Below, one piece after another: positions 1-17,573 of a stretch of 59,764 bases of DNA; position 1 is the stretch's first letter; every line of letters begins with the position of its first letter. The notes under the pieces are model-generated. The model did no database searches, was not told where the DNA came from, and worked only from the letters and a program-made list of their open reading frames with translations. The stretch spans positions 1 to 59,764 of the forward strand of contig DATDKF010000003.1 of assembly GCA_036520135.1 (NCBI GenBank), written 5' to 3'. A program made the translations under genes and the position numbers. This DNA comes from Solirubrobacteraceae bacterium. GTDB lineage: Bacteria > Actinomycetota > Thermoleophilia > Solirubrobacterales > Solirubrobacteraceae.

Positions 1-753
1 CCGCCGCGCCGGCGGCTCCGAGCCCGCGGTCAGCGCCTGCAGCCGCGAGGAGACGAGCGTGATTCCGGGCAGCGGGCGCGCCCGCGTGACCGCGTCGGCG
101 AACGCCTCGCGGTTGCCGCGCAGCGCCTGGAAGCTGAGCGCAGCCACGCCGAGCCCGGCCTCGAGCAGGTCCCACATGTCGGCCAGGACCAGGGCGGCGG
201 TGGCGAACGTCGCGGCGTTGGAGCTCATCAGCGGCAGCGCGTCGCCCGGGCCGATCGCCAGCCGCGCCGGCGCGCGGTCCTCGCCCTCGCCGGCGAGTGC
301 AAGGCCGAGCTGGGCGAGCACGGTGAGGTCGCCGGTGCCCAGGCCGCCGAGGTCGCGCACGGTCGGGACGCGGTGCTCGGCCAGGATGTCGGCGAGCGCC
401 AGCGCCACCTCCGGCCGGCTGCCGCCGCCCGCGGCCATCTGCGCGAGCCGCACGAGTACCGTCGCGCGCACCACGTCCTCGGGGAGCGGCTCCCCGACGC
501 CGCCGGCATGGCTGCGCAGCAGCCGCAGCGCGTGCTCGCCGAGGTCGCCGAGCACGTCGACATGGCGATTGGCGCCGACGCCGGTCGTACGGCCGTAGAC
601 GCCGCGGTCGGCCGCGACGGCCTCGGCCGCCGCGTGCCCGGCGGCCATCCGCTCGCGGGCCGCCGCGGTCAGCTCGACCGCGATCGGGCCGCCGCGCGCC
701 GCCGCCGCGACCGCGGCGGGCGTGAGCGGCTCGTCGCCGATGCGCAGCGTCAC
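1..753 (-). CDS. HAL/PAL-family (aromatic amino acid lyase fold) protein, N-terminal 251 codons only; 3' end lies beyond the window start
   Basis: Absent from the ORF track because it runs off the edge. My translation from GTG 753..751 reads VTLRIGDEPLTPAAVAAAARGG...GVYGRTTGVGANR...VPTVRDLGGLGTGDLTVLAQLGLALAGEGE...LMSSNAATFATAAL with no stop down to base 1. It resembles the HAL N-terminal half (YG.TTGFG, G.SGDLAPL, NG). The start overlaps the DUF1638 stop as GTGA. Confidence 0.6.
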   Translation of the reverse strand, partial: MTLRIGDEPLTPAAVAAAARGGPIAVELTAAARERMAAGHAAAEAVAADRGVYGRTTGVGANRHVDVLGDLGEHALRLLRSHAGGVGEPLPEDVVRATVLVRLAQMAAGGGSRPEVALALADILAEHRVPTVRDLGGLGTGDLTVLAQLGLALAGEGEDRAPARLAIGPGDALPLMSSNAATFATAALVLADMWDLLEAGLGVAALSFQALRGNREAFADAVTRARPLPGITLVSSRLQALTAGSEPPARR

Positions 754-1394
754 GCCGCCAGCAACGCCATGAGCTGTCGTTCCAGTGCCTCCTCTCCGAC
801 CTCGCGGACCTCCAGCGGCAGGCCGAGCGCGGCCGCCGCCCGCTCGGCCGCCGCGCGCGTGGCGGCGGTCGGGTGCTGGGCGAGCCAGAGCACGCGCGTG
901 TAATGACCGAAGTACGCGTCGCGCAGCTCGGGGTGGCGATCCAGCCCCAGCTCGCGCAGCACCGCGTGCTCGAACGTGCGGGCGAGGAAGTCGGTCAGCA
1001 GGTACGTGCCGGGCTCCTCCGCGAGCGCGGCCTGGGCGTCCGGGCCGGCGATCACGTCGTAGCAGTGCGCGCCCGCGAGCCGCGGCACGTCGCCGAGCAC
1101 GTCGTCGAGCGCTCCGTAGGTGCCGCAGTCGGCGTAGGCGACCGCCACGACGTCGTACGCGTCGAGCACCTCCTTGACCGCGGGCGCGATCAGCTCGGGA
1201 CGGTTGTGCAGCAACGCCGGCAGCGGATGGACCTGGACGTCGAGCCCGCGCCGCCGGGCGACGGCCTTGACGTGCACGGCGAGCGCGCCGCAGGCGACGA
1301 CGGTACGAGTGCTCCGCGGGACGTCCGGCCCCGCGTCCCGATCATGGCGGACGGCATCCGGCCGTCCGTAACCGGTCGGCTTCGCCTCCCTCAC
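750..1394 (-). CDS. DUF1638 domain protein (family regularly linked to corrinoid methyltransferase loci)
   Basis: Only the C-terminal 214 aa of track ORF 750..1922 look real (VVACGALAVHVKAVARRRGLDVQVHPLPALLHNRPELI...CGTYGALDDVL...LTDFLARTFEH). The internal GTG at 1394 forms a GTGA overlap with the stop of the upstream activator gene. The upstream part of the ORF is R/A/G-rich junk. Confidence 0.75.
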   Translation of the reverse strand: MREAKPTGYGRPDAVRHDRDAGPDVPRSTRTVVACGALAVHVKAVARRRGLDVQVHPLPALLHNRPELIAPAVKEVLDAYDVVAVAYADCGTYGALDDVLGDVPRLAGAHCYDVIAGPDAQAALAEEPGTYLLTDFLARTFEHAVLRELGLDRHPELRDAYFGHYTRVLWLAQHPTAATRAAAERAAAALGLPLEVREVGEEALERQLMALLAA

Positions 1395-3274
1395 GGGAAC
1401 GCCAGCTGGTCGACGAACATGTCGTTGAAGTCTGCGCGGCCGGACAGCTCGACGTACTCGACCTCGTGGACGATCGAGCGCGCCTCGGCCCGCTCGCGCA
1501 CGCTGAGCGCGGCCATCTTCGCGCCCTCGCTGGCCACGTTTCCGGCCGAGACGATCCGGGGAAGCGCCATCCGCGGCACGAGGCCGATCTTGACGGCGCT
1601 GGCCGGCGAAAGATAGGCCCCGAAGCTGCCGGCCAGCAGCACCTGCGAGATGTCCTCGACTGTGACGCCGAGCTCGGCCAGCAGGATCTGCCAGCCGGTG
1701 GCGATCGACGCCTTGGCGAACTGCAGCTCGCGGACGTCGCGCTGCGAGAGATAGACGCCGCTCGCGAGCATGAACACGCGCTCCTCGCCGATCTTCGTCA
1801 GCCGCGCGGCGAGCGCGGGCGCGATCTCCGCCGCGGTCTCGTCGGGCACATAGCGGCCCGAGTGGTCGAGCAGCCCCGCGCCGACCAGCTCGGCGACGCA
1901 GTCGACCAGCCCCGACCCGCACAGCCCGACCGGCTCCACGTCGCCGATCACCTGCAGCTCGAGCTCGTCGCCGGCGACCCGCACGCCCTCGATCGCACCC
2001 TCGGCGGCGCGCATCCCGCAGCGGATCTGCGCGGCCTCGAACGCCGGGCCGGCGGGCGCCGCGGTGGCGAGCACGCGGTCGTGGCTGCCGAGCGCGATCT
2101 CGCTGTTAGTCCCGACGTCGATGAACAGGCGCAGGCGCGTGTCGCGCGTGAGGCCGGTGGCGAGCATGCCGGCGACGATGTCGGCGCCCACGTAGGCGCC
2201 CAGCGACGGGAACACGACGGCGGGCGCGCGCGGGTGGATGGCGACGCCGAAGTCGGCCGCCGTCGCGGCCGGGAGCTCGTGCGCGGCGACGATGAACGGG
2301 GCCATCGACAGCGGCTCGGGGTCGATGCCGAGCGCGAGCTGGGTCATCGTCACGTTGCCGACGACGACGATCTCGTAGACCTCGGCGGGGTCGACGCCGG
2401 CCTCCTCGCAGACCTCGGCGGTCAGCTCGGCGAGCGTCTCGTGCGCGCGCGTCTCGAGCGCGCCGAGCGCCTCGTCGTCGAGCATCGTCGCCGAGACACG
2501 CGAGATCACGTCGGCGCCGTACGGCTGCTGGCGGTTGAGCATCGAGCGCACGGCGGCCGGCTGGCCGGTCTCGAGGTCGAGCAGCGCGGCGACCACCGTC
2601 GTCGTGCCGAGGTCGAACGCGATCGCGAACCGGCGCGTGGTCGTGTCACCGGGCTCGACCGCGATCAGCAGGTCGTCGCACACGACCGCAGTCACGTCGA
2701 ACATCGCGGCGCGCAGCGTCTTGCCGAGCGTGCGGACGACGCTCAGCTCCACGCGCGGCTCGAGGTCCTCGAGCGCGTCGAGCACCCGCTGCACGTCCGA
2801 GCGCTGGTCCTCGAGCGACGGCTCGTCGAGCACGAGGTGGCGCTTCTGCACCGCCGGGCGCAGGATCACGTGGCGGCCGACGCCCACGAGCGCCGCCTTC
2901 GGGCGCGTCTGCAGCGGCGGCACGTGGACCACCAGGTCACCGCGCGCTTCCGCGCGGCAGGCGAGCCGCCAGCCGTCGCGCAGCTCGTCGGGGCTGAACG
3001 CGCGCGGGTCGACCGAGCTCACCGGCACGTCGCCGTCCTCGATCCGCACCTTGCACTTCTTGCACGTGCCGTGGCCTCCGCACGTGGAGTCGATCGCCAC
3101 GCCGTTCCAGCTCGCGGCGTCGAAGATCGGCGTCCCGCTCGGGACGCGCACGTCCGTGCCGTCGGGTTGGAAGTGCAGGCGGACGCGCTGGGGCCCCGGC
3201 GGAGGGGTCAGACCCCTCCCTTCATCCGGCGGGTCGAACGCCGCGGTCAAGGGGTCAGACCCCTGGGCAGTCAC
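1391..3274 (-). CDS. Corrinoid reductive activation protein (N-terminal 2Fe-2S ferredoxin + ASKHA ATPase domain; RamA/RACo-like)
   Basis: Carries a CGGHGTCKKCKV cluster motif, ASKHA phosphate motifs AFDLGTTTVV and FIDVGTNSEI, and is 627 aa. The first ~30 codons are low complexity and carry palindromic repeats. There is no alternative canonical start nearer the ferredoxin domain. Confidence 0.9.
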   Translation of the reverse strand: MTAQGSDPLTAAFDPPDEGRGLTPPPGPQRVRLHFQPDGTDVRVPSGTPIFDAASWNGVAIDSTCGGHGTCKKCKVRIEDGDVPVSSVDPRAFSPDELRDGWRLACRAEARGDLVVHVPPLQTRPKAALVGVGRHVILRPAVQKRHLVLDEPSLEDQRSDVQRVLDALEDLEPRVELSVVRTLGKTLRAAMFDVTAVVCDDLLIAVEPGDTTTRRFAIAFDLGTTTVVAALLDLETGQPAAVRSMLNRQQPYGADVISRVSATMLDDEALGALETRAHETLAELTAEVCEEAGVDPAEVYEIVVVGNVTMTQLALGIDPEPLSMAPFIVAAHELPAATAADFGVAIHPRAPAVVFPSLGAYVGADIVAGMLATGLTRDTRLRLFIDVGTNSEIALGSHDRVLATAAPAGPAFEAAQIRCGMRAAEGAIEGVRVAGDELELQVIGDVEPVGLCGSGLVDCVAELVGAGLLDHSGRYVPDETAAEIAPALAARLTKIGEERVFMLASGVYLSQRDVRELQFAKASIATGWQILLAELGVTVEDISQVLLAGSFGAYLSPASAVKIGLVPRMALPRIVSAGNVASEGAKMAALSVRERAEARSIVHEVEYVELSGRADFNDMFVDQLAFP

Positions 3275-3290
3275 GGGGGGTCAGACCCCT
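3203..3290. repeat. Three copies of the palindromic core GGGGTCAGACCCCT (15-nt perfect palindrome AGGGGTCAGACCCCT in two copies)
   Basis: Exact 14-nt cores lie at 3204-3217, 3251-3264 and 3277-3290. Copies 1 and 2 fall inside the first 25 codons of the activator gene in two different frames. Copy 3 lies in the 22-nt gap between the methyltransferase stop and the activator start. I did not see the core elsewhere in the window. Confidence 0.85.
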
Positions 3291-3296
3291 CTCGCC

Positions 3297-4157
3297 TCAC
3301 GAGGCCGCGGCCGCCGCCTGGCGCGCGCGGTGGGCGGCGATCCAGCTCGCGCCCCAGGGGTCATGGCCCAGCAGCAGGTCCGCGGCGCGCACGCTCTGCA
3401 CGCAGACCTCGGCGGTGCTCATGATCGCGCTGGTCAGCCCCGCGGCCATCGCCATCGGCAGGAACGCCGCATTGAGGACGAACCGCTCGGGCAGGCCGAA
3501 CGAGACGTTCGACGCGCCGAGGCACATGTTCACGCCGAGCTCGTCGCGGATTAGCGAGATCGTCGTGAGCGTCGTCGTCACCGCTTCGGTGTCGGCCCCG
3601 ACGGTCATCGCGAGCGGGTCGATCACCACGTCCTCGGGCGGGATCCCGTGGTCGCCCGCCGCCGAAACGATCTTGGTCGCGATCTCGAGCCGCTGCTGTG
3701 GCGTCTCGGGGATGCCGGTCTCGTCGTTGGCCAGGCCGATCACCGCCGCGCCGTGGCGCGCGACCAATGGCAGGATCTCCTCCAGCCGCTCGTCCTCACC
3801 GGTCACCGAGTTCACGAGCGCCTTGCCCTCGTAGACGGCGAGGCCGGCCTCGAGCGCCTCGATCACCGACGAGTCGATGCACAGCGGGATGTCGGCCTCG
3901 GCCTGGATCACGGTGAGCATCTTCTGCAGCAGCTCGGCCTCGTCGACCAGCGGGATGCCGGCGTTGACGTCGAGCATGTCGGCGCCCGCGTCGACCTGCG
4001 CGTGGGTGTCGACCGCCACCGTCGCGAGATCGCCGGCCCGCAAGTCCTCGGCCAGCTTCTTGCGCCCGGTCGGATTGATGCGCTCGCCGATGATGCAGAA
4101 CGGCTGCCCGGCGCCGATCGTGACGGTCTTGGACCGGGATCGCAGGACGGTGTCCAT
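3297..4157 (-). CDS. Methylcorrinoid:tetrahydrofolate methyltransferase (pterin-binding, MtgA/MeTr-like)
   Basis: 286 aa with GERINPTGRKKL, MLDVNAG, NSVTGE and ASNVSFGLPER motifs typical of pterin-binding methyltransferases. The start shares 1 nt with the corrinoid protein stop (TGATG). Confidence 0.9.
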   Translation of the reverse strand: MDTVLRSRSKTVTIGAGQPFCIIGERINPTGRKKLAEDLRAGDLATVAVDTHAQVDAGADMLDVNAGIPLVDEAELLQKMLTVIQAEADIPLCIDSSVIEALEAGLAVYEGKALVNSVTGEDERLEEILPLVARHGAAVIGLANDETGIPETPQQRLEIATKIVSAAGDHGIPPEDVVIDPLAMTVGADTEAVTTTLTTISLIRDELGVNMCLGASNVSFGLPERFVLNAAFLPMAMAAGLTSAIMSTAEVCVQSVRAADLLLGHDPWGASWIAAHRARQAAAAAS

Positions 4158-4822
4158 CAGGCCGGCACCATCTCGCGCCGCTTCTCGATTAGCTCCTTGG
4201 CCTTCTTGACCGCCGACGACGCGTCGGCCGAGTAGCCGTCGGCGCCGACCGCGTCGGCGTACTCCTGCGTCACCGGCGCGCCGCCGACCATCACGATCAC
4301 CTTGTCGCGGATGCCGGCCTTCTGCAGCGCGTTGATGTTGGCCTTGAACATCGGCATCGTCGTGGTCAGGAACGCCGAGAAGCCGACGACGTCGGGCGCG
4401 TGCTCGTTGACCTGCTCGACGAACTTCTCGGGCGGCACGTTGACGCCGAGGTCGATCACCTCGAAGCCCGCGCCCTCGAGCATGATGTTGCAGAGGTTCT
4501 TGCCGATGTCGTGCACGTCGCCCTTGACGGTGCCCATGAGGAACGTGCCGACCGGCTTGCTCCCGGTCTCCGCGAGCAGCGGCCGCAGGATGTCGAGCGC
4601 GCCCTGCATCGCGCGCGCGGCGATCAGCATCTCCGGCACGAAGTAGTCACCGCGCTCGAAGCGCGCGCCGACCTCCTCGAGCGACGGGATGAGCGCGTCG
4701 TAGAGCATCCGCTCGGGCTCGAGGTCGCTCTCGAGGCCGGTCTCGACGCCCTCTTTGACGGCCGGGGCGTTGCCGACCAGGGTCTCCTCGTAGAGCAGCT
4801 GCAGGATCTCGTCGTGCGTCAT
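4157..4822 (-). CDS. Corrinoid (B12-binding) protein of a methyltransferase system (MtgC/MttC-like)
   Basis: 221 aa with an N-terminal helical cap and a Rossmann B12 domain carrying GDVHDIGKN (DxHxxG) and MVGGAPV. It has an ATGA overlap with the IclR stop. Confidence 0.93.
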   Translation of the reverse strand: MTHDEILQLLYEETLVGNAPAVKEGVETGLESDLEPERMLYDALIPSLEEVGARFERGDYFVPEMLIAARAMQGALDILRPLLAETGSKPVGTFLMGTVKGDVHDIGKNLCNIMLEGAGFEVIDLGVNVPPEKFVEQVNEHAPDVVGFSAFLTTTMPMFKANINALQKAGIRDKVIVMVGGAPVTQEYADAVGADGYSADASSAVKKAKELIEKRREMVPA

Positions 4823-5592
4823 GCGGCATGCACCCCCATGTCGTGGTCAAGCGCCTGGGCCTCGTGGATCAGCGTCGGGTACAGGTCGGCGATCCGCTGC
4901 GCGTCCAGCCGCAGCGTCGGGCCGGAGATCGACAGCGCGGCCATCCCGTCGACGACCGGAGCGGCGAGCGACGACAGCCCGGTCTCGAGCTCGTCTACGG
5001 CAGTGGCGTAGCCGCTGCGTCGCACGCGGGCGATCTCGGTCTCCAGCCGGTCGGGGTCGGCGATCGTCGCCGGCGTGAGCGGGTCGAGCGGGGTGGGTGG
5101 GATGGGCAAGCCGCCGAACGCGATCAGGACCTTGCCGACCGCCGTGCAGTGGTACGGGACGCGCCGCCCCACCCACTGGCCGGTTCCCAGGAAGTGCCGG
5201 CTCTCGACCTGCGCCAGGTGCTCGACGCCGAGCGGACCCGGGACCGCGAGGTTGATCGTCTCCCCGCTCGCCTCCGACAGCGCCTCCAGGCGCGGTTGCG
5301 CGAGCTCGACGAGCTGCCCGCGGTGGACGAAGCGCCGCAGCACGGGCCCGGGCTCGAAGCGTCCGCGCCGGCCGCGCTGCTGGATCAGCCCCTCGCGCTC
5401 GAGCGCGCCGAGGAGCCGGGAGGCCGTGCTCTTGGGCAGCGACGCGTCGTCGGCGAGTTCGGTCAGGCCGCGCGGGTGTTCGGACTCGAGCACGAGCGTG
5501 AGGAGCTGCGCCGCCCGGTTGATGGTCTGAGTTCCTTGGAACTCTTGTTCCACGGCGAATATATTAGGGTCGCGCTCATGTTCGTCAACCAC
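4819..5592 (-). CDS. IclR-family transcriptional regulator
   Basis: Contains the HTH LTELADDASLPKSTASRLLGALEREGLI plus an IclR effector domain. The start is uncertain. The first start (5592) would overlap the divergent mttB-like start, and the internal GTG at 5553 (VEQEFQGTQTINRAAQLL) is equally plausible. Confidence 0.85.
   Translation of the reverse strand: MVDEHERDPNIFAVEQEFQGTQTINRAAQLLTLVLESEHPRGLTELADDASLPKSTASRLLGALEREGLIQQRGRRGRFEPGPVLRRFVHRGQLVELAQPRLEALSEASGETINLAVPGPLGVEHLAQVESRHFLGTGQWVGRRVPYHCTAVGKVLIAFGGLPIPPTPLDPLTPATIADPDRLETEIARVRRSGYATAVDELETGLSSLAAPVVDGMAALSISGPTLRLDAQRIADLYPTLIHEAQALDHDMGVHAA
5554..5577. promoter_or_regulatory. Probable divergent promoter/operator core with AT-rich palindrome AATATATT (5558-5565)
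   Basis: This is the only AT-rich stretch between the IclR-led operon and the mttB-like gene. TATATT reads as a -10-like hexamer on both strands. Confidence 0.3.
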
Positions 5593-7020
5593 ATGCCGCG
5601 CTACGAGATTCTCAGCGACGAGGCGATGGACGTCCTCGACCGTGGCTGGCGGCGCATCGTGTCAGAGCTCGGCGTGGAGTTCATGCTCCCCGAGGCGGTC
5701 GAGCTGTTCCGCAAGGCCGGCCAGACCGTCGAGGGCGACGCGCTCGTCAAGCTCGACCCGGACTTCGTCCTCGAGCAGGTCGCCAAGGCCCCGCGCCAGT
5801 TCGACCTGCAGGCGCGCAACCCGGAGCGCAGCGCGCACATCGGCGGCGACCACATGGTCTTCTCCGCCGTCTACGGGCCGCCTTTCGTGCGCGATGGCGC
5901 CGAGCGGCGCGACGCGACGATGGCCGACTTCGAGAACTTCGTGAAGCTCTCGCAGGCGTTCCCGGAGCTCGACTCGCCGGGCGGCACGATCGTCGAGCCC
6001 AACGACCGGCCGCTCGACTCGCGGCACCTCGACATGGTCTTCGCGCTGCAGACGCTGTCCGACAAGCCGTACATGGGCTCGGTGATCTCCGGGCCGAACG
6101 CGCTCGACACGATCGCGATGGGCGAGATCCTCTTTGGCGGGCCCGATGCGCTGCAGCGCGCTCCGGTCTCGATCTCGCTGATCAACTGCAACTCGCCGCT
6201 GCGCTGGGACGACCGGATGCTCAGCGCGATGGTCGAGTACAACCGCGCCAACCAGGCCGTCGTGATGACGCCGTTCCTGCTGATGGGCGCGATGTCGCCG
6301 GTCTCCATCCCCGCCACGCTCGCCCAGCAGATGGCCGAGGCGCTGTCGGGCATCGCGCTCTGCCAGCTCGTGCAACCCGGCTGTCCGGTCGTCTTCGGCT
6401 CGTTCCTGTCCAACACCGACATGCAGTCCGGCTCGCCGAGCTTCGGCACGCCCGAGTCCGCGATCGGGCTGCTCTGCACTGGGCAGATCGCGCGCCGCTT
6501 CGGGCTGCCGTTCCGCAGCGGCGGCGGTCTGACGGCGAGCCAGACGGCCGACGCCCAGGCCGCCTACGAGGCGCTGATGACGCTGCTGCCGACGTTCCTG
6601 GCCGGCACCAACTTCGTCATGCACTCGGCCGGCTGGCTCGAGGGCGGCCTGGTGTCCTGCTACGAGAAGTTCATCGTCGACATCGAGCTGCTGCGGATGC
6701 TGCGGCACGAGTTCACGCCGCTGGAGATCGACGAGGCGAGCCTGGCCTTCGACGCCCACCAGGAGGTCGGCCAGGGCGGCCACTTCCTCGGCGCCGCGCA
6801 CACGCTCGAGCGCTTCCGCGAGTGCTTCTACCGGCCGCTGCTCTCCTCGACCGAGAACTTCGACCGCTGGACGCGCAACGGCGGCCAGGACGCCGCGGAG
6901 CGCGCCGCGAAGATCTGGCGCGCGACGCTGGAGGCCTACGAGCCGCCGGCGCTCGACGACGGCGTGCGCGCGCAACTCGAGGAGTTCGTGCGCCGCCGCC
7001 GGGAGGAGCTGGGCGACTGA
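5578..7020 (+). CDS. MttB-superfamily (trimethylamine methyltransferase family) protein, non-pyrrolysine type; predicted quaternary amine:corrinoid methyltransferase
   Basis: This is the real part of track ORF 4828..7020: MFVNHMPRYEILSDEAMDVLDRGWRRIVSELGVEF...SISLINCNSPLRWDDRML...GGLTASQTADAQAAYE...FDRWTRNGGQDAAERA. The frame is uninterrupted with no internal TAG. The start is ATG 5578 or ATG 5593. Confidence 0.92.
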   Translation: MFVNHMPRYEILSDEAMDVLDRGWRRIVSELGVEFMLPEAVELFRKAGQTVEGDALVKLDPDFVLEQVAKAPRQFDLQARNPERSAHIGGDHMVFSAVYGPPFVRDGAERRDATMADFENFVKLSQAFPELDSPGGTIVEPNDRPLDSRHLDMVFALQTLSDKPYMGSVISGPNALDTIAMGEILFGGPDALQRAPVSISLINCNSPLRWDDRMLSAMVEYNRANQAVVMTPFLLMGAMSPVSIPATLAQQMAEALSGIALCQLVQPGCPVVFGSFLSNTDMQSGSPSFGTPESAIGLLCTGQIARRFGLPFRSGGGLTASQTADAQAAYEALMTLLPTFLAGTNFVMHSAGWLEGGLVSCYEKFIVDIELLRMLRHEFTPLEIDEASLAFDAHQEVGQGGHFLGAAHTLERFRECFYRPLLSSTENFDRWTRNGGQDAAERAAKIWRATLEAYEPPALDDGVRAQLEEFVRRRREELGD

Positions 7021-7658
7021 GCGCCGACGGGCTGATCGCCGAGCGCGCCTACGCGGCCCTGCGCGACCGCATCGTCACGCTGAGGCTCCCGCCCGGCACG
7101 GCGCTGCGCGAGGACAAGCTGATGCGCGACCTCGGCATCGGCCGCACCCCGCTGCGCGAGGCGGTCAAGCGGCTCGCGCTCGAGGACCTGGTGGAGGTGC
7201 TGCCGCGCAGCGGCACCTACGTGACGAGCATCGACGCCGCCGACATCGTCCACATCTCCGAGGTCCGCGCCGAGCTGGAGGCGCAGGCCGCCGAGCTGGC
7301 CGCCCGCCGGCTCGACGACCCGATGCGCGAGCGCTTCAGCGCGCTCCTGGCCGACATCGGCGAGCGGCGGACCGGCCCCGACGCGCTGATGCGTCTCGAC
7401 GAGTCGATCCACCGGCTGGTCTGGGAGGCGGCCCGCAACCCGTACCTGACCGCCACGCTGGAGCGCTACTTCGCCCTGTCGCTGCGCGTCTGGTACGTCG
7501 TGCTCGACCGCGTTCCGGGCCTCGGCCCCGCGGTGCTCGACCACGCTCGCCTCGTCGAGGCGATCCTACGCGGAGACGCCGCCACGGCCCGCGAGCTGAT
7601 GCGCGACCACGTGGTCGAGTTCGAGCGCGAGATCGCGGCCGCGTTCAACGGCGACTAG
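7017..7658 (+). CDS. GntR/FadR-family transcriptional regulator
   Basis: Contains the [28 protein letters not shown] plus an FCD-like C-terminal domain. No ATG/GTG/TTG lies between the mttB stop and the HTH. The best candidate start is CTG 7017, which forms a CTGA overlap with the mttB stop. The track start at 6822 would overlap mttB by about 200 nt. Confidence 0.8.
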   Translation: MSADGLIAERAYAALRDRIVTLRLPPGTALREDKLMRDLGIGRTPLREAVKRLALEDLVEVLPRSGTYVTSIDAADIVHISEVRAELEAQAAELAARRLDDPMRERFSALLADIGERRTGPDALMRLDESIHRLVWEAARNPYLTATLERYFALSLRVWYVVLDRVPGLGPAVLDHARLVEAILRGDAATARELMRDHVVEFEREIAAAFNGD

Positions 7659-7700
7659 CCGGCGCCGCCAACGAACTTCGGCTGGGTAAGGAGGCTGGGG

Positions 7701-7781
7701 GATCGGCCGGGTCGGCGGTCCATGGCGAGTTGACCTTCGTATGGCAGGCAAACTCGCCAGAGGCCGACCGACGCGGCCGAT
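7701..7781. terminator. Compound hairpin between convergent genes (possible bidirectional terminator or structured RNA)
   Basis: The inner stem is a perfect 9 bp (TGGCGAGTT 7723-7731 with AACTCGCCA 7751-7759). The outer stem pairs about 13 of 14 positions (7702-7715 with 7768-7781). There is no U-tract. Confidence 0.35.
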
Positions 7782-7824
7782 GCCCTCATTCCCCTACCCA
7801 GCCGCAGTTGACGTTCGCCACGCG

Positions 7825-8678
<854 letters not shown>

Positions 8679-8682
<4 letters not shown>

Positions 8683-9476
8683 GACGCGACCGCGTACCGC
8701 TCGATCGCTTCCCGTCGCCATCGCTCGGTGCGCTCGAGCTCGTTGAACGTGAAGACGTGCAGCCCCGCGATGTTCGCGGCCGGGTCCTTCCACAGCGGCT
8801 CGAGCCGGCGCATCAGCGGCTCGGGGCTGAACGTCCGCGTGACCAGGCGCTTGAGCCACGCCCGGTGCGCGCGCAGGAATCGCGCCGACTCGCCGAGGCC
8901 GATCTTCATCGACACCCGCAGGAGCTTCGAGTTGTCGATGATCCCCGGCACGCCGATCCAGATCGGCAGCGTCGTGCCGCGCTCGCGGACCGCGCCCACC
9001 CACCACGCGATCGTCTCCGGGTCGAAGCAGATCTGGCTGACGATGTAGCTCGCCATCGGCGCCTTCTCGAACATCGCCGAGATCGTCGTCTCGTCGTCGA
9101 TGAAGTGGTGGCTCTCCGGGTAGCCGGTGATGCCGAGCTCGCTGAGGTGGCGCCCGCGCAGCGCCCGCAGCAGCGACGCCGCGTCCTCGAACTGGCCGGC
9201 CTCGACGGCGTCGCCGGCCGGGACGAATGCCTCGTGCACGCCCGCCGCCTCGAGTCGCGCGACGATCTCGTCCAGGTGGGCCGGGTCGCGGACCAGCCGC
9301 GCCGACAGGTGCGGCACGACCTGGTAGCCCTCGCCGGCCAGGCGCTCGGTGACCGAGAGTGTGGCCTCGAGGCCGCGCGAGGGCGACGCGGTCACCGTCA
9401 CCTTCACCTCGCGCGGCACGTGCGCGAGGACCTGGTCCTCGATGCCGTCGATCGGGATGACCTCGTAGCGGATCAC
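8679..9476 (-). CDS. metF: Methylenetetrahydrofolate reductase (MetF/MTHFR family)
   Basis: This is the C-terminal 265 aa of track ORF 8679..10778, with [25 protein letters not shown] and GLHVFTFN motifs. GTG 9476 forms a GTGA overlap with the GMC oxidoreductase stop. Confidence 0.85.
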
Positions 9477-11095
9477 GCCGCCGGGCGCTCCAGCTTGTAG
9501 AAGCCCGCGGTGGAGGGCGGCAGCGGCGTGTCGCCGCGGATCAGGTCGGCGGCCTTCTCGGCGACCATCATCGTCGGCGCGTAGATGTTCGCGTTGGTGA
9601 CGAACGGGAACACCGACGCGTCCACCACGCGCAGGCCGTCGACGCCGCGCAAGCGCATCGTCGCCGGGTCGACGACGGTGCCCATCGCGCACGTGCACGA
9701 GGGGTGCAGCGCGGTCTCGGCGTCGCGCCGCACCCACTCGAGGATCTGCTCGTCGCTGTCCACCTGCGGGCCGGGCGACAGCTCGCCGCCGTCGAGCTCG
9801 GCGAACGCCGGCTGGGCGAGGATGTCGCGCGCGCAGCGGATCGCCTCGACCCACTCGCGCCGGTCGTTCGGTGTCGACAGGTAGTTGAAGCGCAGCGCCG
9901 GGTGGCGGCGCGGATCGGTCGAGGTGATCTTCACCGAGCCGCGGACGTCGGCGTACATCGGGCCGACGTGGAACTGGTAGCCGTGCTCGGCGCCGGGCTT
10001 GCTGCCGTCGTAGCGCACGGCGAGCGGCAGGAAGTGGAACATCAGGTTCGGGTAGGCGACCTTGTCGTTGGAGCGCACGAAGCCGCCCGCCTCGAAGTGG
10101 TTGGTCGCGCCCGGCCCGCGGCGCGCGAACAGCCACCGCGCGCCGACCATCGGCCGGTTGCGCCACTTCAGCGCGGGCTGCGCCGACACCGGCTGCATGC
10201 ACGCGTGCTGGACGTAGACCTCGAGGTGGTCCTGCAGGTTCTCGCCGACGTCCGGCAGGTCGGCGACGGCCTTCACGCCGAGCGCGGACAGCTCGCGCGC
10301 GTTGCCGACGCCGGACAGCTGCAGCAGCTGCGGCGAGTTGATCGCCCCGCCGCAGAGGATGATCTCGTTCCCGCGCGCCACGCCGTCGCCCACCCGCACG
10401 CCGACCGCGCGGCTGCCCTCGAACACGATCTTCGAGACGAGGCGGCGGGTGACGACGCTGAGGTTGGGGCGGCGCCGCACCGGGTGCAGGTACGCGCGCG
10501 CCGCGCTCCAGCGGCGCCCGCGCTTGATGTTGCGGTCGAACGGCGCGAAGCCCTCCTGCTTGTAGCCGTTGACGTCGGTCGTGAGCGGGTGGCCGGCCTG
10601 CTGCACCGCCGCGAACAGCGCGTCGAATAGCGGGCCGCGCGCAGGGCCGCGCTCCAGCCACAGCGGCCCGTCGCCGCCGCGCCACTCGTCGGCGCCCGCC
10701 CTGCAGGTCTCCATCCGCTTGAAGTACGGCAGGCAATGCGCGTAGTCCCACGCCTCCAGCCCGGGCACGCGCGCCCACTTCTCGAAGTCCATCGGGTTGC
10801 CGCGCTGGAAGATCATCCCGTTGATCGAGCTCGAGCCGCCGAGCACCTTGCCGCGCGCGTGGTAGATCCGCCGCCCGCCCATCTGCGGCTCCGGCTCGGA
10901 CTCGTACTTCCAGTCGTAGAAGCGGCTGCCGATCGGGAACGGCAGCGCCGCCGGCATGTGGATGAAGACGTCCCCGATCCAGTCCGTCCGCCCCGCCTCG
11001 AGCACGAGCACCTGCGTCGACGGGTCCTCGCTGAGCCGGTTCGCCAGCACGCAGCCGGCCGAGCCGCCGCCGACGATCACGTAGTCGTAGATCAC
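9473..11095 (-). CDS. GMC-family FAD oxidoreductase, choline dehydrogenase (BetA)-like
   Basis: 540 aa with N-terminal [20 protein letters not shown] and GMC signature regions. The GTG start forms a GTGA overlap with the GntR stop. Confidence 0.9.
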
Positions 11096-11748
11096 AACAC
11101 GCCCCGGATCTCGCTCTCGAACGTCGCCACGTGCTCGGCGGCGATCGCCCGCGCGCCGTCGGCGTCGCCGGCGCGGATCGCGTGCAGCAGCTCGCTGTGC
11201 TCGTGCACGCGCTCGAACAGGTGCGGTAGGCGGCCGAGCACGAGGTACCAGATCCGCAGCGACAGGTTGAGGTAGTGCTCGAGCGTGTTGCGTAGGTACG
11301 GGTTGGCCGCGCAGCGGTAGACGAAGCGGTGGATGCGGGCGTCGAGCCCCATCAGCGCGTCGGCGTCGCTCCGCGGCTGCTCGATCTCGGCCACCAGCGC
11401 GTCGAGCTCCTCGCGCTGCGCCGCCGTCAGCCGCTGCGCCGCGCGGTAGGCCGCGTGGCCCTCGAGCTGCACCCGCACGTCGGAGATGTGCGCGAGGTCG
11501 GTGATGTTGATCTCGGTGACGAACGTGCCGCGCCGCGGGTAGACGGCGACGAGGTTCTCGAGCGCGAGGCGCTTGATCGCCTCGCGCAGGGGCGTCCGCC
11601 CGAGCCCGAGCTCGCGCCCCAGCGACTCCTCGTTGATCGGCGCGCCCGGGGGGATCGTCAGCGTGACGATCTGGTCCCGCAGCTCCACGTAGGCGCGGTC
11701 GGCGAGCAGCTCGCCCGCTCCCGACCGCGCCCCGGTGGCAGCGCTCAC
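11092..11748 (-). CDS. GntR/FadR-family transcriptional regulator (paralog of 7017..7658)
   Basis: Contains [25 protein letters not shown]. It is clearly collinear with and similar to the other GntR by eye. The start is the internal GTG 11748, 2 nt after the permease stop. Confidence 0.85.
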
Positions 11749-11750
11749 CG

Positions 11751-13370
11751 CTACTCCGCGGGAATCTCCCCGTAGGACATCGACAGATCCATCCCCTGCC
11801 GACGCCGGTACAGCCTCGAGCTCACGAAGATCGCGAGCGCGAGCGCGTATAGGGCGCCCATGAAGATCAGCGAGCCGCCGTCGTTGATCCCGTAGATGTC
11901 GTCTTGGAGCCACTTGAAGAGGCAGAACACCAGGAACACGATGAACAGGCTCGCCGCGAAGGTGATGAGCGGGATGCCGGCCACCCTGTACTTGGCGATC
12001 GGCGATGCGTTGTAGATCTCAGGCTTGCGCCAGGGCAAGATCGCGGCCGCGACCGTCGACCCCAGGAACGTGACTGCGATGACGAGCGTCGCATCGAGAG
12101 TGTACGTCTGGAAGTCGGTGCTGTAGGCGTACAACGCGGCGATCCCGAGCGACGGCACGAGCATGAGCAGCAGCGCCACGTACGGCACGCCGTTGCGGTT
12201 GACCTTCGCGACGCCCTCGGGCAGGACGCGGTCGAACGCGGCGGCGAAGACCACGCGCGTCGAGGACAGGAACACGGTTCCGACCCAGCCGAAGAACCAC
12301 AGCGAGAGCACGGCGACGAGCAGGAACTGCAGCACCGGACTGCCGAAAAACGACGCGGCCAGCAGGCCTGGGTACGGCCAGACGCCGGTCGGGATCGTGC
12401 CCGCCCAGAACGCGTTGTTGGCGGCGTTGTAGAAATCCCAGCCGAACGTCTTCGAGAAGAGCAGGAACAGCACGACCGCAGCGATCGACGTCGCGAGCAG
12501 CGCGCCGAACATGGCCCGGATGTTCTGACGGAAGTCGGACGCCCCGCGGACCTCGCCGTAGAGCGTCGCGCCCCAGTTCGACCACAGGTTGAAGAACGCC
12601 ATCATCGGGACCAGCAGGAACGTCGCGCCGACCGCGAACCCGCTCACATCGGCCGGCGAGAAGTCCTTCAGACCGGCGTCCAGGGTCGCCTGATAGGCGT
12701 TGTCGACCCCGTAGAGGTCCTTCGACTGCTCGTTGAAGTTCGAGATGAAGCTCGTCTTGGAGTTGACGAGCAGCAGCACGATCATCACGGCCAAGCCGAT
12801 GAGGCCGCCGTAGAAGCAGACCTTCTGGATCTTCGAGTACGTGCGCATCCCCAGGGCGATGAAGCCCGACGCGAGGAGCGCGGTTATCACCGACGAGACG
12901 AAGATGCCGTCGTTACCGCTCCAGAACGTCACCGCGCTGTCCCAGCCGATGATCGCGCACAGCGGCCCGAGCACCTCGACGTTGAGGATGTTGGCGTAGA
13001 TCGGGACCCAAAGCCAGAGGATGAACCACCAGCCTGTCACGGCCAGCACGAAGCCGATGCCGCCGCCGAGCACGCGGCTGGTCCAGACGTAGTCTCCGCC
13101 CGCGCGCGGCATGGCGGCGATCAGGGACGCGTAGGTGATGGCCTGCACGACCAGATAGAGACCCGCGAGCAGCACCGCGAACAGCAGGCTGCCGTCCGGG
13201 ATAAACGGGGCGTAGCCGAAGATGTACAGCCCGAGCGTCACCAGGTTGATCGAGAACGCGGCGTAGATGAACGCGTCGCGCGTCGACCACCCGCGGACGA
13301 GGCCAGTCGCCTTGCGTACGAAGACGGTGCGTTCGGCCGCGTCTCCCGCACCTGTTGAAACTGTTGCCAT
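11751..13370 (-). CDS. APC-superfamily amino acid/organocation permease
   Basis: 539 aa with more than 12 hydrophobic segments and an APC-like pattern (PRAGGDYVW). A GAGGAGG Shine-Dalgarno sequence lies 7 nt upstream of the ATG. Confidence 0.9.
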
Positions 13371-13412
13371 GTTCTGACTCCTCCTCGTGGCTCCGGTCCG
13401 CCCGCGGCCTTC

Positions 13413-14357
13413 CTAGCCGCTGGTCAGCACGAAGTTCTTCACCTTCTTCTTCTTGGCGTCGAGATCGATCACGACGCCGAGCAGCTGGCCCTGCTCGTAG
13501 GAGCTGCCGGGGTTGATGCACAGCGTGCGGCCGAGCCGATGCGTGCCGCGCGCCTCGTGGATGTGCCCATGCAGCGCGAGCGCGGGCTGGTGGCGCTCGA
13601 TCGCCTCACGCACCGCCGTCGAGCCGACCGGCACGGTCGCGCGGCCCGCGTCCTTGAGGCTCATGTCTGCGGTCAGCTGTGGAGCGTCGTCAAGGCCGGT
13701 GTTGTGGGGCGGGCAGTGCAGGCTGAAGATCGTGCATTCGGGCTCGACCGTGACGTCGGCCAGCATCCGCTCGATGCGCTCGAGCAGCACGTCCTCGTCC
13801 TCCTCGCGGTAGGTGTCCCACGGCGTGCGGTTGGCCCATCCGCTGGACGCCATCTGGAAGTCGCCGAGGTCGACAACGCGGCCCTCCCCCAGCTCCACCG
13901 TCTTCGCGTCGGCGACCACCGCGTCGACCTCGAGCTGGTCGTCGTTGCCCGGGCATACGAAGACGCGGATGCCGGTTCCGGCGAGCCGCTCGTCCGCCAT
14001 TGCCATCCAGCGCTCGACCGTGGCGAGCATGTGCTCCTCGAACAGCGCGTGCCAGCGGGGCTCGTCCGCCGAGAGCTCGCGAAGCTCGTCCTGCGTGGTC
14101 CGGAACGGGTAGTAGCCGCGGCGCTGGACCGCCGCCTCGAACTGGGCGAGCTCGTCCTCGCCGTTCAGCGTCTCGCGGTTCTCGAGGAGCGTGGCGTGCC
14201 AGTGGCCGCCGCCGTCGTCGATGATCGGGATCAGCGCCTTGCCGGTCATGTCGCCGCCGAGCACCACGACGTCGGCCTTGTAGTGGGCTCCGCTGTTGAG
14301 GAACTTCTTCCAGCACACTTCAGAGCCGTGGATATCCGTCGCGAAGAACATCCGCAT
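13413..14357 (-). CDS. Metallophosphoesterase (calcineurin-like) family protein
   Basis: This is the real 314 aa of track ORF 13413..14651, with DIHG, GGDMTG, GNDD, LHCPPH and HGHIHE metal-ligand motifs. The ATG at 14357 lies 4 nt after the upstream stop. Confidence 0.85.
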   Translation of the reverse strand: MRMFFATDIHGSEVCWKKFLNSGAHYKADVVVLGGDMTGKALIPIIDDGGGHWHATLLENRETLNGEDELAQFEAAVQRRGYYPFRTTQDELRELSADEPRWHALFEEHMLATVERWMAMADERLAGTGIRVFVCPGNDDQLEVDAVVADAKTVELGEGRVVDLGDFQMASSGWANRTPWDTYREEDEDVLLERIERMLADVTVEPECTIFSLHCPPHNTGLDDAPQLTADMSLKDAGRATVPVGSTAVREAIERHQPALALHGHIHEARGTHRLGRTLCINPGSSYEQGQLLGVVIDLDAKKKKVKNFVLTSG

Positions 14358-14361
14358 CCGA

Positions 14362-15108
14362 CTACTCCACCTCCTCCGGCAGCTCGTACCAGCGCTTCTT
14401 GTCCCCGACCTTCGCCCGCCGCCGCCAGCCGCGGCTCTTGGGCTCGTCCTCGATCCGCCGCAGGAGCTCGTCGAAGCGCGCCTCGATGCGCTCGCGGTCG
14501 CCGACGGGGAGGTCGTAGTCGCCGACATGGCCGCGGCAGCGCTCGAGATTCGCGGTGATCGTGCGCCACAGCCCCCAGTCGTCGGCGCACAGCGCGGCGA
14601 TCTGCGCGCCGTTGACGGCGCCGTTGTCGTGGTCCGCGATCGGATGCCCATGGAACAGCAGCACCGTGTCGCGGATGTCCTTCTCGTTGACCTCGATGAT
14701 CTGGAGCTTGGTGAGCATCAGCTCCGCCAGTGGCACCGTCTGGGTCTCGACCTCCAGCCGCTTGCCGAGCGGGATCTCGTGGCACATCCGGAACGCGTCG
14801 ATGAAGAGGTCGACCTGGCGGCCGTTGGCCTCGTCGTAGTAGAGCCCTCGCTCACGGGCGTGCATGGCGTTGAAGGCGACGTGCGGCTCGTATCCGGCGT
14901 TGCGCAGCAGCTTGTCGGCCGCTCCGCCGCCCTTCTTCGTCACGGCGAAGTCGATGTCCTTGTACTCGCGCGTGAGCGCGGCCGGCACGTCGGTCGCCTT
15001 CAGCCGCACCGCCACCCCGCCCAACAGCCGCAGCGGCACCCCCTCCTGCTCGGCGATCCCGAGCAGGCGCTCGCCCTCGGAGACGATGTCCTCGAGGATG
15101 TCGCTCAT
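14362..15108 (-). CDS. Hypothetical protein with nucleotidyltransferase-fold-like N-terminus
   Basis: 248 aa. LRLLGGVAVRL...YKDIDFAV resembles the G[GS]...D.D minimal NTase signature. It has a helical C-terminal half and a basic tail. The function is not assignable. Confidence 0.7.
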   Translation of the reverse strand: MSDILEDIVSEGERLLGIAEQEGVPLRLLGGVAVRLKATDVPAALTREYKDIDFAVTKKGGGAADKLLRNAGYEPHVAFNAMHARERGLYYDEANGRQVDLFIDAFRMCHEIPLGKRLEVETQTVPLAELMLTKLQIIEVNEKDIRDTVLLFHGHPIADHDNGAVNGAQIAALCADDWGLWRTITANLERCRGHVGDYDLPVGDRERIEARFDELLRRIEDEPKSRGWRRRAKVGDKKRWYELPEEVE

Positions 15109-15189
15109 TGGCTACCGACCCTTGGATGCAACTGGAATTCGACTTATATATCGTCGGTTCCCGAACGGCAAGCCGAGAGAGAGGGCTCG
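15109..15189. promoter_or_regulatory. Divergent intergenic region with AT-rich island TTATATAT (15144-15151)
   Basis: This is the only AT-rich patch between the divergent NTase-like and ALDH genes. The purine-rich stretch AGAGAGAGGG precedes the ALDH ATG. Confidence 0.3.
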
Positions 15190-16632: not shown

Positions 16633-17573
16633 GCGGCCGCAGCCGTGGCCATCCGGTACTGCTGCGGGCTCACGCCGCGCACGCGCTTGAACGCGGTCGA
16701 GAACGCGAACGGCGTGCCGTAGCCGACCTGCTGCGCGACCGCGCCGACCGTCGTGCCCGGCTCGCGCAGCAGGTCGGACGCCAGGGCGATCCGCCAGCCG
16801 GTGAGGAAGCTCATCGGCGGCTCGCCGACGAGCTCCTGGAAGCGGCGGGCGAGCGTCGCCCTCGACACGCCGGCCTCGTGCGCCAGCCGCGCCACCGTCC
16901 ACGGGTGGGCGGGGTTGTGGTGGAGCATCCGCAGCGCGCGGCCGACGACCGGATCGGCGTTGGCCCGATACCAGGCCGGCGCCTCGGCGTCGGGCCGCGC
17001 GAACCAGGCACGCAGGACGGCGATCAGCAGCAGGTCGAGCAACCGGTCGAGCACCGCCTCCTGGCCCGGGTCGTCCTTGACGATCTCGGTCGCCAGCAGC
17101 GGGATGACCGGGCAGTCCCACTCGTCGTCGCGCAGCACGAGCAGCCGCGGGAGCGCCCGCAGCAGGCGCCCGCTCACCTCGCCGTCGAGGTGGTAGGTGC
17201 CGACGAGCATCACCGTCTCGCCGTCGGTCGAGTTGCCCCAGCTGCGAACGCCGAGGTCCATGCTCTGGACGAGCGGACGCCCGTCGCGCGTCTCGCAGCG
17301 CTGGCCGGGGTGGATGATGATGTCCGGCTCCGTGGCCGGGTCGTCGGCGACCGTGTAGTGGTCCGGCCCGAGCACGACCGCGACGTCGCCCGGCTCGAGC
17401 GCCACGGGCTCGCAGTCGTCGTGCCCGAGCCACGCGCTGCCGCGCACCATCGCCACGACGGTGAGCGGCTCCTCGTCGCGGATCCGCATCGACCACGGTG
17501 GGTCCATGACCGCGCGCAGGAGGAACGCCTCGCGGGCGCGGGGTCCGTCGAGCAGGCCGGCGATCGCATCCAT
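16629..17573 (-). CDS. AraC-family transcriptional regulator with N-terminal cupin-like sensor domain
   Basis: Starts at the internal ATG 17573 (MDAIAGLLDGPRAREAF...). The C-terminal HTH reads WTVARLAHEAGVSRATLARRFQ...GYGTPFAFSTAFKR. Confidence 0.88.
   Translation of the reverse strand: MDAIAGLLDGPRAREAFLLRAVMDPPWSMRIRDEEPLTVVAMVRGSAWLGHDDCEPVALEPGDVAVVLGPDHYTVADDPATEPDIIIHPGQRCETRDGRPLVQSMDLGVRSWGNSTDGETVMLVGTYHLDGEVSGRLLRALPRLLVLRDDEWDCPVIPLLATEIVKDDPGQEAVLDRLLDLLLIAVLRAWFARPDAEAPAWYRANADPVVGRALRMLHHNPAHPWTVARLAHEAGVSRATLARRFQELVGEPPMSFLTGWRIALASDLLREPGTTVGAVAQQVGYGTPFAFSTAFKRVRGVSPQQYRMATAAAA

Follow-up and report, generated by a model that had tools for sequence, protein, structure and literature searches.

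A Probable MtgBCD-Type Glycine Betaine Demethylation System within a Choline-Catabolic Island of a Soil Solirubrobacteraceae Bacterium

Introduction

The 59,764-nucleotide stretch of DNA analyzed here (the window; GenBank assembly GCA_036520135.1, contig DATDKF010000003.1) comes from a Solirubrobacteraceae bacterium and carries a gene for an MttB-superfamily methyltransferase, divergent from an operon for a corrinoid protein and its partner enzymes. Which methylated compound would such a system demethylate, and to what end, in a respiring soil actinobacterium? An initial annotation, made from the sequence alone, recognized the methyltransferase system and held that its substrate could not be read; it traced the characterized nonpyrrolysine MttB enzymes to anaerobes and called the role of such systems in aerobic actinobacteria essentially undescribed. 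With regard to aerobes, the last two statements are outdated. Aerobic Ruegeria pomeroyi demethylates glycine betaine with such a system: on this compound it induces two PF06253 proteins together with MtgC, MtgD, RamA, DUF1638 and MetF2, and knockouts added to this proteomic evidence show that mtgC and mtgD are needed for growth on glycine betaine (Mausz et al., PMC12478193); an mtgB1 knockout has been made in Phaeobacter inhibens (2025 preprint, bioRxiv 10.64898/2025.12.19.695462). The R. pomeroyi study also describes co-localized operons in other bacteria and assigns 5% of ocean mtgC reads to Actinomycetota (PMC12478193), and a study of oxic palsa peat that also measured glycine betaine and choline reported nonpyrrolysine mttB expression by Actinobacteriota (PMC10805028). 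The statement on the substrate was not borne out either: a gene for a choline dehydrogenase, identified at equivalog level and coupled to one-carbon (C1) genes, lies beside the methyltransferase system. From the gene content and active-site residues set out below, we conclude that the window probably encodes MtgBCD-type, cobalamin-dependent glycine betaine demethylation, set within an island for choline and glycine betaine catabolism.

Results and Discussion

A complete corrinoid methyltransferase system without pyrrolysine

Genes were called by open reading frame (ORF) listing with translation, a GC3-based call, and Pfam and NCBIfam profile searches (window G+C content of 70-79%). All seven genes that the initial annotation had placed in 750-7658 were found there with the domains it described, and profile matches support its picture of a complete four- to five-component corrinoid methyltransferase system around a nonpyrrolysine MttB-family enzyme. 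The high-GC actinobacterial host (a lineage of Solirubrobacteraceae metagenome-assembled genomes [MAGs]) and the respiratory and O2-dependent neighbors of the mttB-like gene were likewise as described. The gene content of that interval therefore stands, while its boundaries do not: a histidine ammonia-lyase (HAL)-family gene at 1-753 (minus strand) and a betA-metF-purU operon have to be added, and through the latter the functional unit reaches about 13370 and perhaps 16632. The core genes are as follows.

5578-7020, plus strand: nonpyrrolysine MttB-superfamily methyltransferase, predicted MtgB, 480 amino acids (aa) (MTTB, PF06253)
7032-7658, plus strand: GntR/FCD regulator, co-transcribed with mtgB (GntR and FCD domains)
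4819-5553, minus strand: IclR-family regulator leading the iclR-mtgC-mtgD-ramA-DUF1638 operon (HTH_IclR and IclR_C)
4157-4822, minus strand: MtgC-like corrinoid (cobalamin) protein (B12-binding_2 and B12-binding; GDVHDIGKN, matching DxHxxG)
3297-4157, minus strand: MtgD-like, pterin-binding methyl-corrinoid:tetrahydrofolate (THF) methyltransferase (Pterin_bind, 108 bits)
1391-3274, minus strand: RamA/RACo-type reductive corrinoid activase, 627 aa (Fer2, RACo_linker, Raco_middle and RACo_C_ter)
750-1394, minus strand: DUF1638 protein (PF07796, 67.7 bits; ATGA overlap with ramA), a family accessory to corrinoid reactivation in MtgBCD-type systems

The predicted MtgB matches PF06253 over its full length (626.7 bits, profile positions 25-500 of 500), a family with 8450 clusters in the representative library at E ≤ 1e-3. 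As first annotated, its frame is uninterrupted and holds no in-frame TAG (ORF and translation); ARAGORN found no tRNA gene in the window, and so no pylT, and no pyl-family genes (pylSBCD) were present among the ORFs scanned there. Among structures in the PDB, the best match was 4YYC, deposited as a “putative TMA methyltransferase” (454 bits, E = 4e-135, 46.6% identity), followed by the MtgB of Desulfitobacterium hafniense (2QNE/9YCE; 413 bits, 42.5% identity, full-length); the pyrrolysine-containing MttB (7XCL) matched with 117 bits across residues 185-463 only. A TIM-barrel fold with a C-terminal extension is suggested only by the sequence match to 4YYC, a single-sequence AlphaFold2 model having reached a pLDDT of 33.9. 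The pterin-binding protein passes the model for methyl-THF:corrinoid methyltransferases (NF005719, 320 bits against a cutoff of 259). For the corrinoid protein, the top NCBIfam match is MtgC_2 (205 bits, below the cutoff of 370). In the activase, a plant-type 2Fe-2S domain precedes the three RACo domains of an ASKHA ATPase, and the protein scores 403 bits against AcsV, below its cutoff of 800. Because junctions between the minus-strand genes are overlaps of 1-4 bases or a gap of 22 nucleotides (nt), iclR, mtgC, mtgD, ramA and the DUF1638 gene form one operon.

Choline oxidation and C1 genes beside the system

The gene that had been read as a GMC oxidoreductase and a marker of aerobic life turned out to be more than that: its product is the choline dehydrogenase BetA, passing the equivalog cutoff of TIGR01810 (789 versus 732 bits) and that of NF002550 (838 versus 605 bits). 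It belongs to a cluster lying 170 bp from the mtgB-gntR unit.

7825-8682, minus strand: PurU, formyl-THF deformylase, final step of THF-linked C1 oxidation to formate (TIGR00655)
8679-9476, minus strand: divergent MTHFR-like protein, 265 aa, proposed MetF2 analogue (methyl-THF to methylene-THF; PF02219, 38 bits)
9473-11095, minus strand: BetA choline dehydrogenase (TIGR01810, NF002550)
11092-11748, minus strand: second GntR/FCD regulator (GntR and FCD; GTG at 11748 abuts the permease stop)
11751-13370, minus strand: APC-superfamily permease, candidate choline/betaine importer (AA_permease_2, 63.8 bits)
15190-16632, plus strand: aldehyde dehydrogenase (ALDH), possibly a betaine aldehyde dehydrogenase, weakly assigned (Aldedh, 466 bits)

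The five minus-strand genes make up one tightly packed operon with the permease first (Shine-Dalgarno GGAGGAG ahead of its ATG at 13370) and 4-bp overlaps among betA, the MTHFR-like gene and purU; the same gene order recurs in orthologous loci L010, L014, L088 and L089. BetA lies 2.5 kb from the MttB gene. PurU passes its model (378.8 bits versus a TIGR00655 cutoff of 286), and the best PDB match of the MTHFR-like protein is 7xg9, a 288-aa MTHFR (91.5 bits) which we take to be the mycobacterial noncanonical enzyme. The second GntR/FCD regulator is a paralog of the one after mtgB (55% identical). Against betaine aldehyde dehydrogenase models the ALDH scored 297-327 bits, below their cutoffs. 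FolD was not found in the window. The MttB system is thus flanked by a glycine betaine producer and by enzymes leading from methyl-THF to formate, and its role is most likely in choline catabolism.

Two types of MTHFR-like protein accompany the system across loci: the weak-scoring 265-aa type that sits beside purU in the window, and a type of 294-312 aa encoded between mtgD and mtgC in approximately 30 loci (e.g., L017:7115-7999 and L053:7181-8119). Directly upstream of the permease-betA operon and on the same strand are a weakly matching metallophosphoesterase-like gene (13413-14318) and, further upstream, a gene for an uncharacterized nucleotidyltransferase (NTP_transf_5; 14362-15108). This pair is syntenic in L010, L011 and L014 and lies inverted beside the cluster in L054 and L075; it is no more than a guess that the two release choline from a phosphorylated precursor.

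Conservation among relatives

One scan of species-representative genomes yielded at least 538 relatives confirmed by tblastn, of which the best 80 loci (79-93% identity) were recovered; they come from MAGs named Solirubrobacteraceae, Solirubrobacterales, Thermoleophilaceae, Gaiellales or unclassified Actinomycetota. The MttB protein itself was found unchanged on ten JGI metagenome contigs. Gene neighborhoods were counted in the 65 orthologous loci of at least 15 kb. Homologs of MtgB, MtgC and MtgD occurred in all 65, DUF1638 and IclR in 64 each and RamA in 63, and this constancy argues that the core arrangement is not due to chance. The surroundings varied more: MTHFR or PurU accompanied the core in 42 of the 65 loci, an ALDH ortholog (65-76% identical) lay within 10 kb of mttB in 38, and a BetA ortholog or a gene of the dimethylglycine (DMG) dehydrogenase type in 27. 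At L016, BetA follows DUF1638, and MttB is followed by an 845-aa DAO-FAO_M-GCV_T protein of the DMG dehydrogenase type; genes for ETF alpha, ETF beta and an Fe-S/CCG protein are also present. The operon of a 91%-identical ortholog reads FeS-CCG, ETF alpha, ETF beta, DMG dehydrogenase-like, DUF1638, RamA, MtgD, MtgC and IclR, divergent from MttB and GntR, and past GntR come PurU, PALP, MTHFR, ALDH, GMC and permease genes. As BetA makes glycine betaine and the DMG dehydrogenase-like enzyme consumes DMG, these neighbors bracket the MttB step as the conversion of the former to the latter.

Two contigs encoding the same 91%-identical MttB protein (L088:5209-7653 and L089:5778-8510) differ in the fusions called on them, RamA-DUF1638 (814 aa) in one and pterin-binding methyltransferase-RamA (910 aa) in the other. 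These may be artefacts of assembly or indels, or genuine fusions that would back a functional link. In four loci from more distant Actinomycetota and Gaiellales (L050, L051, L053 and L082), a homolog of Bmt/MtgE (43% identical to Bmt of Sinorhizobium meliloti) lies ∼2.3-4 kb past the mttB stop, so a link to methionine synthase may exist in some actinobacterial lineages; neither the window nor the Solirubrobacteraceae loci yielded a homolog of MtgE or of homocysteine S-methyltransferases.

The active site

In the D. hafniense MtgB, glycine betaine is bound by Y97 and F356 through cation-pi contacts and by R312 and H348 at its carboxylate, as established by mutagenesis and a ligand-bound crystal structure, and the exchange F356L raises the Km several hundred-fold (Picking et al., PMC13080624). 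Whether substrate-facing residues are conserved had been raised in the initial annotation; Y97, R312 and H348 are kept in the window enzyme, whereas F356 is replaced by Gly (HSAGWLEGGL in the window versus HTAGILQYFM in D. hafniense), with a Trp at position 352. The pattern Y97/R312/H348/W352/G356 recurs in 4YYC and in all Solirubrobacterales orthologs aligned (eight representative loci). Of 92 full-length superfamily representatives, 39 have an aromatic residue at 352 only and 35 at 356 only; 18 have one at neither position, and no sequence has one at both (D. hafniense MtgB numbering; counts uncorrected for, and confounded by, phylogeny). This mutual exclusion suggests that W352 substitutes for F356, the two positions being alternative builds of the second wall of the cation-pi cage. 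Y97 is lost in the two nearest clusters of paralogs (65% and 62% identity), so the Y/R/H/W signature marks a narrower group that includes the S. meliloti protein.

Proposed pathway

Choline or betaine would enter the cell, possibly by the APC permease, and BetA, perhaps with the nearby ALDH, would oxidize choline to glycine betaine. The MttB-family enzyme is predicted to move one N-methyl group of glycine betaine to the Co(I) of the corrinoid protein, leaving DMG, and the pterin-binding methyltransferase would hand the methyl group on from the corrinoid protein to THF. From there, the MTHFR-like protein would convert methyl-THF to methylene-THF and PurU would finally free formate, giving reducing power and C1 units. 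Corrinoid oxidized to Co(II) would be re-reduced by the 2Fe-2S/ASKHA activase with DUF1638, an acute need in an oxic cell.

Several observations weigh against this assignment, substrate specificity being the main uncertainty given an identity of just 42.5% to the validated D. hafniense MtgB, one changed residue out of four in the binding site and a superfamily in which specificity shifts at ∼50% identity: MtcB and MtyB are 53% identical, yet differ in substrate preference (PMC8604678). The proposed compensation of the F356-to-Gly change by W352 comes from covariation, not from structure. No DMG dehydrogenase is encoded in the window, its place being taken by the HAL-like gene, which hints at another betaine. 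Genes for cobalamin synthesis or uptake were absent among the ORFs scanned in the window, and Rfam at gathering thresholds returned no match at all there, hence no cobalamin riboswitch. In the literature we found no experimental work on an actinobacterial mtg-type system, only metatranscriptomic mentions.

Comparison with known systems

The window shares its module set (PF06253 MtgB, MtgC, MtgD, RamA-type activase and DUF1638) with the MtgBCD(E) systems of Ruegeria and Phaeobacter, likewise with a dedicated MetF paralog and THF-linked C1 oxidation in an aerobically respiring host; the comparison with their genetically validated MtgB proteins (SPO2108, SPO2134 and PGA1_RS07270) is one of module content. 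Genes for choline, DMG and sarcosine are co-located with such systems in many genomes, another point of likeness. The host differs, being an actinomycetotal one of class Thermoleophilia, as do the regulators (IclR and two GntR/FCD proteins) and the type of MTHFR-like protein, and the modules are held in a single IclR-led operon divergent from mtgB, whereas those of Ruegeria and Phaeobacter are scattered. As no MtgE lies nearby, nothing points to a second role of the window system in methionine synthesis. Its novel features are the phylum and lineage of the host (Solirubrobacteraceae), the dedicated operon, and a conserved operator of IclR type together with two divergent promoters that overlap. 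Corrinoid-dependent transfer of methyl groups to THF in an aerobe, coupled to dedicated metF2, folD and purU genes, is also known from the cmu pathway of Methylorubrum extorquens CM4, where the methyl donor is chloromethane and the methyltransferase, CmuA, is unrelated to MttB.

By sequence, the window proteins could be compared with the mtg locus of S. meliloti, described as an MtgBCDE cluster (PMC12478193): identities are 47% for MtgB, 43% for MtgC, 50% for MtgD, 32% for RamA and 43% for DUF1638. The structure 4YYC is the MttB-family protein of that locus (100% over 474 residues) and has the same active-site signature as the window enzyme (Y97, R312, H348, W352 and G356); no published substrate for it was found in the literature. 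The divergent layout of mtgC and mtgB is the same, and genes for DUF1638, the pterin-binding methyltransferase (MeTr), MTHFR and an ASKHA activase are there too; unlike the window, the S. meliloti locus has bmt/MtgE and a ferredoxin, another type of MTHFR and no adjacent iclR. The D. hafniense MtgB (DSY3156; 2QNE, 9YCE) has the carboxylate ligands R312/H348 and the cation-pi residue Y97 in common with the window enzyme; its partners are likewise a corrinoid protein, a methyl-THF methyltransferase and an activase. It differs in having F356 in place of Gly, the aromatic at 352 being the window's feature, and in feeding the methyl group into the metabolism of an anaerobe rather than into an aerobic C1 oxidation island of the BetA/PurU type. 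MtpB, MtcB, MtyB and MthB of the anaerobic acetogen Eubacterium limosum, compared here by description, belong to the same superfamily and pass methyl groups from quaternary amines by a shared corrinoid protein to THF; their substrates differ (proline betaine, carnitine, gamma-butyrobetaine and phosphocholine, respectively), and they keep R312 but not the aromatic pair (PMC13080624). Pyl-MttB (7XCL) shares the PF06253 fold family and corrinoid-dependent methyl transfer with the window gene, which is without a pyrrolysine codon.

A HAL-like gene without the MIO triad

The operon ends, in this lineage, in a gene whose product departs from the choline theme.

1-753, minus strand: N-terminal 251 aa of a HAL/PAL-family (PF00221) protein, running off the window (Lyase_aromatic, 162 bits)

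Its start overlaps the DUF1638 stop by 4 bases (750-753), the two being translationally coupled, and it fills the operon slot held elsewhere by BetA or DMG dehydrogenase. The triad that forms the methylidene-imidazolone (MIO) group is missing: GGLGTGDL stands for G-ASG-DL (a one-residue deletion and Ser to Thr), and Tyr280 is Phe. The same changes are found in ∼110 of the 120 best homolog clusters (62-94% identity), marking a conserved clade, and a full-length ortholog is present at L010:3895-5319 (minus strand). The best PDB match is 7tqr, a probable HAL (165 bits); ergothionase 6s7j scored 84 bits. In L090:6473-13852, a 68%-identical member of the clade is divergent from a hut-like operon, which encodes a probable canonical HAL (with GSVGSSGDL where an ASG motif is usual) along with urocanase, amidohydrolases and an M20 peptidase. 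Next come genes for an IclR protein, a PF02574 S-methyltransferase, an ornithine-cyclodeaminase-family protein and a third PF00221 paralog, an arrangement that suggests a pathway for a methylated histidine derivative.

Other substrates and functions

The same machinery could serve another quaternary amine, with the MttB enzyme acting on proline betaine, carnitine, gamma-butyrobetaine, phosphocholine or some amino-acid betaine, for instance hercynine (histidine betaine), and BetA and DMG dehydrogenase neighbors reflecting a general betaine island. We consider this unlikely but a serious contender. It would accommodate the loss of F356 and the ease with which specificity switches in the superfamily at ∼50% identity (PMC8604678), and aerobic bacteria with mtgCD often have several MttB paralogs that lack an assigned substrate; the window has a single MttB gene, however, with orthologs adjoining BetA and DMG dehydrogenase-like genes, and its Y97/R312/H348/W352 residues are those of the S. 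meliloti mtg-locus protein, the nearest paralogs having lost Y97. The HAL-family gene at the end of the operon bears on the same question, since absence of the MIO group has been described as typical of trimethylammonia-lyases acting on ergothioneine or histidine betaine (bioRxiv 10.64898/2026.04.22.720169) and the L090 member of the clade has a hut operon and a gene for an S-methyltransferase as neighbors, yet the window's gene is present in just 6 of the 65 loci. A specific form of the idea, which we hold to be improbable, makes the HAL-like protein a new enzyme, similar to trimethylammonia-lyases, that acts on an amino-acid betaine (e.g., hercynine); the corrinoid module could then belong to a wider and as yet undescribed betaine pathway of actinobacteria, or the W352-type MttB could act on that betaine in place of glycine betaine. 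If so, cobalamin-dependent demethylation would be tied to histidine-betaine or ergothioneine turnover in soil.

Two further explanations were considered. MtgC and MtgD might mainly form a split methionine synthase with MtgE, as in Phaeobacter and Ruegeria, with MttB as an accessory methyl donor, and the MtgE/Bmt homologs within ∼4 kb of mttB in the four distant loci named above would fit; the lack of such a homolog in the window and the Solirubrobacteraceae loci, and the placement of mtgC and mtgD in a substrate-regulated IclR operon beside PurU and MTHFR-like genes, which indicates the catabolic direction, make this very doubtful. A trimethylamine (TMA):corrinoid methyltransferase is what automatic annotation would have it: JGI labels close homologs (88-94% identity) “trimethylamine--corrinoid protein Co-methyltransferase,” and the sole NCBIfam match of the enzyme is TIGR02369. 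That match, however, reaches 273.8 bits against an equivalog cutoff of 525; the gene has no in-frame TAG, no tRNA or pyl gene was seen in the window, the score to the solved Pyl-MttB is 117 bits as against 413-454 bits to nonpyrrolysine members, and the D. hafniense MtgB is inactive on TMA. We regard the label as almost certainly wrong. Glycine betaine thus remains, in our judgment, the probable substrate.

Proposed control of the divergent operons

The intergenic region and the first codons of mtgB hold a putative operator and two overlapping promoters.

5537-5552: palindrome TGGAACTCTTGTTCCA (TGGAAC-N4-GTTCCA), putative IclR operator, sole exact copy in the window
5536-5565, plus strand: mtgB promoter, sigma-70-like, TTGGAA-18-TATATT, with the -35 element inside the palindrome
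5588-5561, minus strand: iclR promoter, sigma-70-like, TTGACG-16-TAATAT, with the -35 element inside the first mtgB codons

Upstream of mttB, 78 of 79 orthologous loci carry the palindrome (72 of them an exact copy); in the remainder of the 1.45 Mb of locus sequence it occurs only once. By its sequence it fits the IclR group-2 consensus TGRAACA-N1-2-TGTTYCA and resembles the Escherichia coli IclR box (consensus from PMC8222616). The -10 elements of the two divergent promoters overlap, and the pair (5536-5588) were the only two promoter-like sites in 1-17000. Both are mirrored among relatives: a TANNNT hexamer follows 7 nt past the palindrome in 64 of 73 loci, and GTCAA, the reverse of the -35 element TTGAC, lies 18-20 nt beyond that hexamer in 67 of 73. 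As the palindrome overlaps both the mtgB -35 element and the iclR start codon, co-repression of both divergent operons is proposed; IclR likely represses its own operon along with that of mtgB by binding the palindrome, and the two operons would stay off until an effector appears. Transcription from the minus-strand promoter would begin at the iclR start codon, so the iclR transcript is predicted to be leaderless. No second copy of the palindrome was found near the betA operon, the two 2-mismatch matches being far off and at chance level, and the two GntR/FCD paralogs may provide a second layer of control. A scan of 1-17000 found no terminators, which is uninformative at 72% G+C.

The starts of two genes differ from those first given. 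The IclR gene is present as first annotated, though with a different start: instead of 5592, GTG at 5553 is most likely, an ATG or GTG standing at this position, right after the palindrome, in 78 of 78 loci. A 257-aa IclR call made by metagenome pipelines was rejected, as it puts the operator and AT-rich, low-GC3 codons inside the gene. For the GntR regulator of the mtgB unit, the position downstream of mttB held, whereas the start first given (6822) did not, since it would create a 199-nt arginine-rich overlap inside mttB; ATG at 7122, the basis of a 178-aa metagenome-pipeline call, was likewise rejected because it halves the winged-helix domain. Orthologous GntR genes start with GTG or TTG 1-15 nt past the mttB stop. 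At this conserved position, within 7017-7040, the window has CTG (7032) or ATC (7035) and no ATG, GTG or TTG, as do L011, L014 and L007.

Remainder of the window

The rest of the window (with genes at 24553-25374, minus strand; 39542-41572, plus strand; 42042-44165, minus strand; 49464-51286, plus strand) is apparently unrelated to the system. It holds genes for a fatty-acid hydroxylase-family protein, a double WYL/PafC-type regulator and a GAF-GGDEF-HD-GYP protein, as well as rmlD-like and rmlB-like genes, MFS transporters and an MMPL transporter.

Implications

Soil is rich in the small nitrogen compounds glycine betaine and choline, and the Solirubrobacterales, few of which have been cultured, are common among its Actinomycetota. 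The system described here opens no new kind of biology, the same kind having been shown in 2025 in aerobic marine bacteria. Should the assignment be correct, it would correct automatic “trimethylamine methyltransferase” labels in soil and peat metagenomes, which can be misread as methylamine or methanogenic metabolism, and it would offer an operon that is compact and self-contained, has a sharply delimited operator and lends itself to heterologous expression. The MtgBCD route of marine Proteobacteria would then also be conserved in the Solirubrobacterales lineage, and the demand for vitamin B12 would extend to betaine turnover in soil.

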